Origin: Escherichia phage vB_EcoM_ESCO50
Length of the DNA stretch: 64,000 nt
Direction: 5' to 3' (one strand)
Sequence record: OM386664.1
Positions 20,222 to 21,759 of this stretch are shown in pieces. The position numbers and the translations under genes were made by a program. How positions within the stretch are numbered: the stretch's first letter is position 1; each line of letters opens with the position of its first letter. A model generated the notes under the pieces. The model did not search any database. It saw only the letters and a list, made by a program, of their open reading frames with translations, and was not told where the DNA came from.

Positions 20222-20347
20222 TTATAAGAGGGTTTTTAAGTGATGTAATGTAAGGCAAGGCAAGGCAAGGTGGGGTGTGGTCTGGCCAGGTTAGGTTCGG
20301 TGATGTCAGGTATGGGTAGTTAGTCTCAGCTACATTAAAATGAGACT
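20222..20347 (+). repeat. Composite intergenic element, copy A: aagagggttttt motif + GGT-rich tract + hairpin agtctca/tgagact
   Basis: Read directly; see findings. Confidence 0.6.
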
Positions 20348-20356
20348 TACCTTTTT

Positions 20357-20494
20357 AAAAGGTCTTTAAGAGGGTTTTTTAATGAGGTAGGGTAAAGTAA
20401 TGCTTGGTCTGGTTTGGTAAGGCGCGGTCTGGTTTGGTAAGGTAAGGTTCGGTATGGTGTGGGTGGATGGTAGTAGCCACATTAAAAATCTACC
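20357..20494 (+). repeat. Composite intergenic element, copy B: aaaaggtctttaagagggtttttt + GGT-rich tract (internal 17-nt direct repeat ggtctggtttggtaagg x2) + hairpin ggtag/ctacc
   Basis: Read directly. Confidence 0.6.
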
Positions 20495-20570
20495 AAGTTT
20501 CTAAAGAGTCTTCTGTTGAGGGTTCTTTACAAACAACTTAACAATAAACTAAAGTGTGGAGCTAAATGCT

Positions 20571-21158
20571 ATGAAACTGCTAAATGTCAGAATCACTGGT
20601 ACTCGTCCTTTCTTGAGCCATAATGATACGCTGTCAGACCCATTAAACCCTCTGACAAAATATCACAAGGCTCTGTCCAGTAAACGTAAAAAGACTGACG
20701 AAGACTATGCGCTCTTAGCAGAAAGTCAACTGGTAACTTCTTGTTACTACGACGAGCAGCTAGGTTTTGTTATGAACGGTGAGATGATTGAGGCTTGTAT
20801 CAAGTCTGGTGCAAAACTCAACAAACTTGGTAAGGTAATTGACAGAGCCATTATGCTGACAGATGTAGTCTTCCCAATGACTATCAAGAACTGCCCAGCA
20901 AACCCACAAGAACTTGCTAAGAATCCAGACTTCATCTATGCGAAGTCTGTCAAGATTGGCACAGCACGAGTTATGAGCTACCGTCCAATCTTCCGTGACT
21001 GGTCTGTAGAGTTCGGTTTGATGTTCGATGAAGAGCAAATCTCCAAAGAAGAACTTTTGATGGTTTTGGAAAATGCTGGCAACCTTTGTGGTGTAGGTGA
21101 TTGGCGTCCACGCTTTGGTCGTTTTTCTGTAGAAGTTATTTCAGAAGGTAACGTTTGA
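20571..21158 (+). CDS. Hypothetical protein (~195 aa; ATG start with GGAG RBS preferred over track start 20556)
   Basis: ORF track 20556..21158. Confidence 0.5.
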
Positions 21159-21601
21159 TTATGAATACAAAAGCATTAGCAGCCAAGTTTAGTTACGGTG
21201 ACACTGTATCACACTCTGAGATGGACACCTTCTTAGGTATTGTTAAGCCAACTTATCAAGGTGACATTGTTAAGTACGAAGATGAGATGAAGGCTTATGC
21301 GCTTACACGTCTAAACCGACTTGAGAAGTTTATTGAAAAGCTTCTTAAAGAAGAGAAGATTTATCTGGTTGCTTCAATGGGTGTTGGTTATCGTGTGGTT
21401 GAACCTAAGCATCAAGCAACTATTGCAAAACGCAAAATGTCTGGTAAGATTGGTCGTGCTTTAAAACAAGCCACTCAAGCAATTGAGAATGTGAACACTA
21501 TGGCACTTAGTCATCAAGAACGTTCACGACTGATTGAACAGCAAAACCATTTAGCTGCTATGAAAGCTAACATTAACAAGCAACGCAGAAAACCTTTCTA
21601 A
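21155..21601 (+). CDS. Hypothetical protein (148 aa), basic C-terminus
   Basis: ORF track; ATGA overlap with upstream gene. Confidence 0.5.
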
Positions 21602-21613
21602 GTTGACTAGGTA

Positions 21614-21627
21614 GCCTCTTCGGAGGC
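21614..21627 (+). terminator. Rho-independent terminator (gcctc-ttcg-gaggc followed by tcctttttaaaa)
   Basis: Perfect hairpin plus T-tract directly after stop of 21155..21601. Confidence 0.6.
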
Positions 21628-21631
21628 TCCT

Positions 21632-21759
21632 TTTTAAAAGGTCTTTAAACAGGGTCTTTTAGTAAGGCATGGCTAGGTGAGGTCTGGTAGGGTAGGGTGA
21701 GGTGGGGTTGGGTTGGGTTTGGTATGGAAGGATGGCAGTAGCCTTATAAAAAATCTGCC
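21632..21759 (+). repeat. Composite intergenic element, copy C: aaaaggtctttaaacagggtctttt + GGT-rich tract + hairpin ggcag/ctgcc
   Basis: Read directly. Confidence 0.6.

Follow-up and report, generated by a model that had tools for sequence, protein, structure and literature searches.

A predicted type II VIPR locus with three guide RNA genes in the Felix O1-like coliphage vB_EcoM_ESCO50

We analyzed a stretch of 64,000 nucleotides (64 kb) from Escherichia phage vB_EcoM_ESCO50 (record OM386664.1), hereafter called the window, whose positions are used for all coordinates unless another locus is named. Three similar composite elements occupy two intergenic regions of it, 20142-20570 and 21602-21851, with two genes in between. 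We consider it very probable that this region is a type II locus of VIPR (Viral Interference Programmable Repeat), of the SUSP1 clade, in a Felix O1-like coliphage, and that the three elements are genes for its guide RNAs (vrRNAs). This assignment is drawn from the identity of the two proteins (Vipr and Vap), the GGYNN signature of the repeats (Y, pyrimidine; N, any base), the covarying pseudoknot in the 3' tail and the matches of guides to a satellite of E. coli. The original prediction had described three copies of one element made of a conserved A/T-G motif, a GGT-rich tract and a hairpin; all three parts were found in the sequence, to a degree far beyond chance, and the element appears to be functional and structured. 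It had left the element unrecognized and passed over the two protein genes, vipr and vap, that lie within the same span (20222-21759) and belong to the system. Preprints of 2026 already describe the element as the VIPR guide RNA gene, and the window adds no new principle.

According to two preprints of April-June 2026 (bioRxiv 10.64898/2026.04.26.720920, 10.64898/2026.04.26.720927), VIPR consists of a small RAMP-like protein, Vipr (RRM core, G-loop and thumb), an accessory gene, vap, and vrRNAs of ~100 nucleotides (nt). As described there, a vrRNA carries 9-16 YNNGG repeats and then a constant 3' tail of ~40 nt with a pseudoknot; there is one Vipr protomer per repeat with GGY flipped out, and NN pairs with DNA in the pattern NNxNNx, skipping one base, in most cases a wobble base. 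The vrRNAs of SUSP1 are ~100-nt expressed RNAs, which are recovered together with Vipr and guide silencing at the level of transcription. For the SUSP1 clade, most natural targets belong to a satellite phage found in E. coli genomes, and targets were identifiable for 20 of 41 guides. The preprints also mention hammerhead ribozymes between the vrRNAs of other VIPR types (type I and type V) and the authors' proposal that VIPR predates CRISPR.

If the window follows this scheme, each vrRNA gene would give an RNA of ~100-115 nt with 10-11 GGY-NN guide units, two constant units and the 3' pseudoknot tail. By the mechanism of the VIPR preprints, one Vipr protomer would take each 5-nt unit, holding the flipped-out GGY and presenting NN. 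The filament would read double-stranded DNA, one strand as NNxNNx and so on, in a gapped R-loop with the non-target strand threaded ('triplex'), and transcription would be blocked. Vap would enhance this silencing.

VIPR is a newly reported way of RNA-guided DNA reading, with a gapped code in which 2 of every 5 guide bases read 2 of every 3 target bases. Its very small size makes it interesting as a programmable DNA binder. The specifics of the window are the layout of its vrRNA genes (two upstream and one downstream of vipr and vap, 2 + 1), its guide sequences and a predicted target of vrRNA A. The window offers an independent confirmation of the code from sequence alone, a concrete predicted target for one guide, the Dam-like methyltransferase gene of the satellite, and a conserved hairpin flanking the vrRNA genes. 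It also shows that a reader given only the letters is able to pick out VIPR loci.

Vipr, Vap and the repeat tracts

The first gene between the elements, vipr (20571-21158, + strand), encodes a RAMP-like protein of 195 amino acids. A sequence search of PDB with this protein gave one strong match, chain 36pp_D ('SUSP1 Vipr protein'; E = 2e-126), with 187 of 195 residues identical (96%), which is above the 90% cut-off used for the SUSP1 clade (bioRxiv 10.64898/2026.04.26.720920, 10.64898/2026.04.26.720927). All contact residues named in the structure preprint are kept (H17, K33, R39, E71, M72, K82, G87, K88, R138, C173, D177, W178 and R179), and the residue given there as 'T175' is V in the PDB sequence and in the window Vipr alike. 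The second gene, vap (21161-21601, + strand), encodes a Vipr-accessory protein of the Vap1 type with 146 amino acids, 145 of which are identical in the open reading frame after vipr in SUSP1 (locus L018). Neither protein had a match in Pfam, and PHROGs assigned them only to families of 'unknown function' (phrog_5926 for Vap). A scan of IMG/VR with Vipr detected 18 close and 6 distant loci. The layout of two loci, L018 and L020, matches that of the window. An early idea that the tracts are clusters of primase sites was dropped after the match to PDB 36pp and the VIPR preprints.

The likeness to the type II VIPR of SUSP1 covers both proteins (Vipr 96% and Vap 99% identical), the gene order and the GGY/NN pentamers with a pseudoknot tail. 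The three tail types and the flanking hairpins described below occur in SUSP1 itself, and the guides of both phages aim at one E. coli satellite family by the 1-nt-skip rule. On the other hand, SUSP1 has one vrRNA gene upstream and three downstream, as compared with 2 + 1 in the window (2 + 2 in AYO145A and 2 + 3 in bumzen), the guide sequences differ, and the window phage matches Felixounavirus records at 93-96%.

Class 1 CRISPR-Cas, with its CRISPR RNA in a Cas7 filament, is the other obvious comparison. There too, a RAMP-fold protein polymerizes along a guide RNA and its thumb flips bases periodically, the variable guide is capped by a constant structured handle, and the target is a rival mobile element. 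However, VIPR has no repeat-spacer array and no Cas1/Cas2 or Cas6; its period is 5 nt with three bases flipped and two read, whereas that of CRISPR is 6 nt with one flipped. Moreover, VIPR reads the target with a 1-nt gap, is encoded by a phage and silences instead of cutting. In the window, direct repeats of ~28-37 nt with spacers were not found, the units being 5 nt long without any repeat-spacer organization, and scans of Pfam and PHROGs gave no Cas match among the neighboring open reading frames, the RAMP-like Vipr aside.

The G-rich tracts noted in the original prediction are real and unique in the 64 kb. Segments of 60 nt with at least 27 G occur only at 20250-20325, 20404-20481 and 21647-21752, and no C-rich equivalent was found in the 64 kb; ggtctggtttggtaagg is indeed present twice within the second copy. 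Each tract is an exact array of period 5 with 12-13 GGYNN units in perfect register. Taken together, the three tracts have 38 units, with G at position 1 of 37 units and at position 2 of all 38 (GG 99%), T or C at position 3 of 35 (92%), and all four bases in near-random fashion at positions 4 and 5. The same holds for 57 unique tracts from 20 sister phages, in which the first three positions are G, G and Y at frequencies of 0.88, 0.98 and 1.00 and positions 4-5 take all bases; the tracts range from 9 to 17 units. All of them lie on the gene strand, and none outside this locus. The original prediction suggested testing the GGT tract for protein binding; instead of protein-binding DNA of a generic kind, the tract is better explained as the part of an RNA that serves as guide, with a 5-nt code in which GGY would be held by protein and NN would read the target.

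The tract of vrRNA A (20254-20318, + strand) has 13 units, of which units 1-11 form the guide (NN: AA AA AA GG GT CT CA TA TC GA CA) and the last two (GGTAT GGGTA) are constant and belong to the tail. That of vrRNA B (20406-20465, + strand) has 12 units, the last two again constant, with the guide CT TT AA GC CT TT AA AA TC AT, and is preceded by ~4 degenerate units (20386-20405). That of vrRNA C (21666-21730, + strand) has 13 units with GGTAT GGAAG as the constant pair and AT TA GA CT AG AG GA GG TG TG TT as the guide. Among the 21 phage loci compared, including the window (20 distinct phages, AYO145A being present twice), guides A and C are unique, and the vrRNA B guide is also present in AYO145A and other relatives. 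Even in close relatives, whose flanking genes are 93-96% identical, positions 4-5 differ almost completely while GGY and the register are kept, suggesting that the frame is under selection and the two free bases are diversifying. None of the guides seems to be aimed at the phage itself: in a scan of the 64-kb window, the best matches covered 68%, 75% and 73% of NN positions, none of them reaching the 80% cut-off.

These features bear on the possibility that the tracts act as DNA structures, namely G-quadruplexes, an R-loop replication origin or, on the antisense strand, a C-rich Rho-loading (rut) site. Two-tetrad quadruplexes could arise from GG-N3 repeats, R-loops are favored where a strong promoter is followed by a G-rich non-template strand, and genes for DNA ligase and DNA polymerase adjoin. 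However, none of these structures needs a pyrimidine at position 3, a 5-nt register, 9-17 units, a pseudoknot tail or a linked Vipr gene, nor do they predict the satellite matches given below, and we regard them as highly improbable.

In five of the 6 loci of distant Vipr homologues from metagenomes (37-41% protein identity), the gene is flanked by period-5 GG tracts, always on the gene strand, which suggests that the tracts travel with the Vipr protein. One metagenomic phage, L023 (Vipr 39% identical), has GGC-NN units in place of GGT-NN at 3565-3860 and 4323-4513 of its locus. It has five tracts with 14-20 units each, which end with GG and TTTTTT just ahead of the next start codon and are separated by different conserved spacers (e.g. 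gttgactg...cagtcaa). By its sequence, the predicted tail and array architecture of L023 clearly differs from the SUSP1 type.

Tail structure and targets of the guides

The hairpin stems in the original prediction were all found at the 3' end of the tracts on the + strand. In the tail of vrRNA A (20309-20355), AGTCTCA (20322-20328) pairs with TGAGACT (20341-20347), followed by a T-run (20352-20356). The tail of vrRNA B (20456-20499) contains TGGTAG/CTACCA (20468-20473/20490-20495) and that of vrRNA C (21721-21764) TGGCAG/CTGCCA (21733-21738/21755-21760). In addition, a pseudoknot arises from pairing between the last repeat unit and the 5' portion of the loop: GTAG (20316-20319) with CTAC (20330-20333) in vrRNA A, GTGG (20463-20466) with CCAC (20477-20480) in vrRNA B and AAGG (21728-21731) with CCTT (21742-21745) in vrRNA C. 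Thus, the loop that had been called conserved is so only in part; it includes four bases that change in concert with the last repeat unit, and is partly a second helix.

A hairpin plus an H-type pseudoknot was scored on an alignment of 24 distinct tails, taken from the window, sister phages and satellites. In this hand-padded alignment, 98% of the cells of the hairpin and pseudoknot are paired, compared with 29-46% in slid controls. Both partners have changed in three of the four pseudoknot pairs and in six of the seven stem pairs, and 96.8% of the stem cells are paired. This pattern indicates that the tail hairpin is under selection for structure, in agreement with the published VIPR pseudoknot, and upholds the earlier argument against a decayed duplicate. 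Copy number does vary between close relatives, as would be expected if the copies were recent tandem duplicates decaying without function. But divergence is confined to NN, with GGY, tails and flanking hairpins fixed, the stems change by compensatory pairs, and the organization is kept beside Vipr homologues of only 37-41% identity; we give decay practically no credence.

BLAST searches of the locus against complete E. coli genomes returned only short unannotated stretches resembling vrRNA B. They sit in an island of ~10-12 kb (phage satellite), integrated at wrbA/ymdF, yecN or yciI, with genes for a serine recombinase, a baseplate protein, a tape-measure protein, a 'transposase', an HNH endonuclease and a Dam-like methyltransferase. 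This island fits the satellite of the preprint. Its relatives are present in 549 of 5,426 complete E. coli genomes (~10%), searched with a query that excluded the chromosomal flanks wrbA/ymdF. The vrRNA B matches themselves are present in 48 complete E. coli genomes.

To these satellites, in 19 variants, we compared every guide after conversion of GGYNN to xNN. The last two units were trimmed because they are constant, derived from the tail and never match targets. Among 54 unique trimmed guides from the window and sister phages, 32 match the 19 satellites at 90% or more, five of them perfectly, whereas none of the 54 guides with shuffled unit order did so. The published 1-nt-skip rule is thus reproduced independently.

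This result also bears on a decoy or sponge role, in which the tracts would lack any guide function and titrate a multimeric RNA-binding regulator of the TRAP or CsrB/RsmZ-CsrA kind. The TRAP sites of Bacillus consist of a GAG or UAG triplet repeated ~11 times with 2-3 free bases between, one subunit binding each triplet, and a triplet with a 5-nt period present 12-13 times resembles them. However, the triplet here is GGY and not GAG/UAG or GGA, the spacer bases are informative whereas those of TRAP sites carry no information, the protein folds are unrelated, and the neighbor is Vipr rather than a homologue of TRAP or CsrA. A scan of 19900-22100 against Rfam 15 (E up to 10) gave best scores of 12.8-22.4 bits, compared with gathering thresholds of 50-70; these were for eukaryotic small nucleolar RNA or long non-coding RNA models or Listeria small RNA models, and no ribozyme or CsrB/RsmZ-type family was matched. 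Above all, a sponge leaves the gapped NN matches to satellites (32/54 compared with 0/54) unexplained, and we think it very unlikely.

For vrRNA A, 21 of 22 bases match at position 9869 of satellite L042 (AACAAAAATGGAGTTCTCCAGTAATCAGAACC) and 9847 of L045, 20 of 22 in L041 and 17-18 of 22 in two more satellites, with 17 of 22 as the best of 100 shuffles. Strains ZJ3920 and EC20017429 carry the site with 21 of 22 matches. The site is the same place of the methyltransferase gene in every satellite hit and covers codons 14-24, all skipped bases being at codon position 3. Therefore vrRNA A is predicted to be aimed at codons 14-24 of the Dam-like DNA methyltransferase gene of the satellite.

For vrRNA B, 8 consecutive units are perfect (16/16 bases; 16/20 overall) at L027:10604, which is intergenic and upstream of the 'transposase' gene. 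In 100 shuffling trials, 7 units were reached in 5 and 8 never, and the region is also targeted by guides of other phages. These matches make the intergenic region ahead of the 'transposase', tape-measure and baseplate genes of the satellite the probable target of vrRNA B. An exact match of all 10 units also exists in a P2-like tail-fibre gene (L036, 11983-12011; IMGVR_UViG_2806310749_000003; peptide ...NTLLKALLNNSI...), in frame with skipped bases at wobble positions. We estimate that 0.1-1 such match is expected by chance, and this match may be a second natural target or a coincidence.

For vrRNA C, no convincing target was found in the satellites or in exact scans of three sequence collections. 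Six consecutive units are shared with a site at L031:4765, upstream of the 'transposase' and hit by a guide of another phage, and this is within the range of shuffles. The trimmed guides A and C had no exact match in IMG/VR; guide C had none in JGI metagenomes and one in GTDB genomes, in Mesoplasma seiffertii, which we regard as chance.

The satellites of E. coli carry a vrRNA gene of their own, e.g. at L027 14930-15130 (chromosome of E. coli FY10), and no vipr is annotated in the islands fetched. It has 12 GGYNN units and a pseudoknot tail like that of the phage with another stem (GTCG/CGAC), preceded by a TTGACA-17-TAAGAT promoter and a ~45-nt leader and followed by a GC-rich intrinsic terminator.

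The hairpin flanking the vrRNA genes

The conserved motif that the original prediction placed in front of each tract exists, with corrections. aaaaggtctttaagagggttttt is exact at 20357-20379, and the variant form, agtcttataagagggttttt, starts at 20218 rather than 20222. The copy reported at 21632 as near-identical starts at 21636 and is less similar than that, reading aaaaggtctttaaacagggtctttt with one base inserted and substitutions. Moreover, a fourth copy, close in front of the next gene at 20507-20530, had been overlooked. Conserved as it is in sequence, the motif also folds as an RNA hairpin of 16 base pairs including G·U pairs, which we call the flanking hairpin.

On the + strand, copy 1 (20208-20244; variant form; -13 kcal/mol, z = -4.0) ends just before the first units of vrRNA A. 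Copy 2 (20351-20386) lies between vrRNA A and vrRNA B and copy 4 (21630-21666) between the vap terminator and vrRNA C, both recognized by fold and covariation. Copy 3 (20497-20534; -12.3 kcal/mol, z = -3.3) lies between vrRNA B and the coding sequence of vipr. As RNA, each of the four copies has 16 pairs and a loop of 4-6 nt (-9 to -13 kcal/mol; z from -1.8 to -4.0) and abuts the first repeat unit or the end of the preceding tail. The pattern GTCTT-N(5-8)-RGGGT occurs four times on the + strand of the 64 kb, always in this locus, and once elsewhere on the - strand; being found nowhere else on the + strand, the motif is not a general phage promoter.

We aligned by hand, to fit the structure, 24 distinct copies of the hairpin from the window and 13 sister-phage loci. 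In this alignment 94.5% of the cells are paired (39-69% in slid controls). Both partners vary at 7 of the 16 pairs, so that three stem 'flavours' can be told apart, and three positions close to the loop hold a G·U or U·G pair in 22-23 of the 24 copies. Such conserved G·U pairs would mismatch in DNA or on the other strand, and the + strand RNA is therefore likely to be the unit under selection. The copy at L001 4343-4397 and five other sister-phage copies have a loop insertion of ~26 nt ('...gtctttaaattatattcgatagagtatctcatagggt...') and were excluded from the covariation count.

We tentatively propose, at somewhat less than even probability, that the flanking hairpin, which brackets all vrRNAs as well as the vipr mRNA, is a maturation or boundary signal of SUSP1-type VIPR arrays, at which a polycistronic transcript starting from the promoter-like site at 20149 would be cut or trimmed or the Vipr filament would stop. 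A host double-strand RNase such as RNase III might excise it, or it might bring the 3'-to-5' growth of the filament to a halt; in both cases, the 5' end of a guide and the 3' end of the preceding one would be fixed by it. The early-gene RNase III hairpins of T7 and the hammerheads of type I and V VIPR are similar in that structured RNA stands at boundaries within one transcript, but the stem of the flanking hairpin is only 16 base pairs and rich in G·U, and its cleavage role is putative. If the proposal is true, the flanking hairpin would be the type II counterpart of the Cas6 repeat hairpin of CRISPR or of the type I/V hammerheads. It could also explain the sizing of type II guide RNAs, a step left open in the preprints, the searchable text of which mentions neither RNase, maturation, leader nor flanking hairpin.

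Alternatively, the motif may work at the DNA level as a promoter or operator, with -35-like TTAAAA, a 17-nt spacer and -10-like TTTAAT, each vrRNA and vipr being a separate transcription unit that is possibly under a DNA-binding Vap. The hexamer spacing fits by eye, the motif is specific to the VIPR locus, and most copies follow a terminator-like hairpin with a T-run, so that the next unit would need its own start. However, a consensus promoter scan called none of the four copies, and the critical A at position 2 is missing from the -10-like hexamer. The arms covary as described, and the conserved G·U in 22-23 of 24 copies fits only RNA of the + strand. For these reasons we think such a promoter or operator unlikely, though it deserves some weight beside the boundary signal.

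Several points weigh against the assignment of the locus to VIPR and the proposed part of the hairpin in it. Expression, Vipr binding, silencing and RNA ends are taken over from the preprints on SUSP1 and are predictions for the window. Both structural alignments were fitted by hand, and the 24 sequences in each come down to only ~4-5 independent tail types and 3 hairpin types. Of the three guides in the window, a convincing natural target exists for that of vrRNA A alone, a yield that is nothing unusual, as the preprint identifies targets for 20 of 41 guides. The satellites' own vrRNA gene has no flanking hairpin but an ordinary promoter and terminator, and the hairpin is therefore not needed for guide function as such. 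Finally, the role of the flanking hairpin is one that we infer.

Locus setting and other observations

The 4 kb around the locus match 259 phage records at 80-99% identity, nearly all of them Felix O1-like myoviruses. The matching records belong to Felixounavirus (Ounavirinae) with E. coli, Salmonella and Shigella as hosts, the best being Escherichia phage vB_EcoM_ESCO56 (96%). In annotated relatives, DNA polymerase, small open reading frames and DNA ligase are followed by a long intergenic region, two 'hypothetical proteins', a second long intergenic region, more small open reading frames and a helix-turn-helix regulator. The genome paper of Felix O1 does not mention the repeats. Vipr at least 90% identical is found in 117 phage records, as compared with 259 for the 4-kb region, so VIPR may be an accessory locus within Felix O1-like phages. 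One record with a Vipr 98.5% identical to that of SUSP1 is named 'Staphylococcus phage SA1' (GU169904.1), which is at odds with the stated host.

With regard to transcription signals, the copies had been placed between a terminator and a promoter-like site. This applies to vrRNA C (terminator at 21613-21628, promoter-like site at 21779-21807) and not to the other copies, and vrRNA A lies behind a strong promoter-like site of the sigma-70 type, upstream of the locus (20149-20176, + strand; TTGACA-16-TATACT, 11 of 12 matches). The matching site carries a promoter annotation in phage AYO145A. Judging from its sequence and position, it is likely to be the start of a transcript of vrRNA A, vrRNA B, vipr and vap. 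On the 3' side of vap, a hairpin resembling an intrinsic terminator (AGCCTCTTCGGAGGCT) is followed by a T-run (21613-21635, + strand), which doubles as the 5' arm of copy 4 of the flanking hairpin.

Directly 3' of the vrRNA C tail, a perfect 13-bp inverted repeat (AAATAAGCTATAA / TTATAGCTTATTT; 21760-21806) flanks on both sides the -35 hexamer TTGACA (21779) of the promoter-like site that comes next, with a T-run behind it. All relatives with the vrRNA C tail type have kept this repeat, which might serve vrRNA C as its terminator or 3' boundary or act as an operator of the promoter downstream. Apart from the locus, the + strand near the end of the window has a C-rich and G-poor stretch of ~100 nt (63478-63572; '...ctaacaagccctctaacaagccttcttaacagcc...ccctctacaccctctta...') with short direct repeats.

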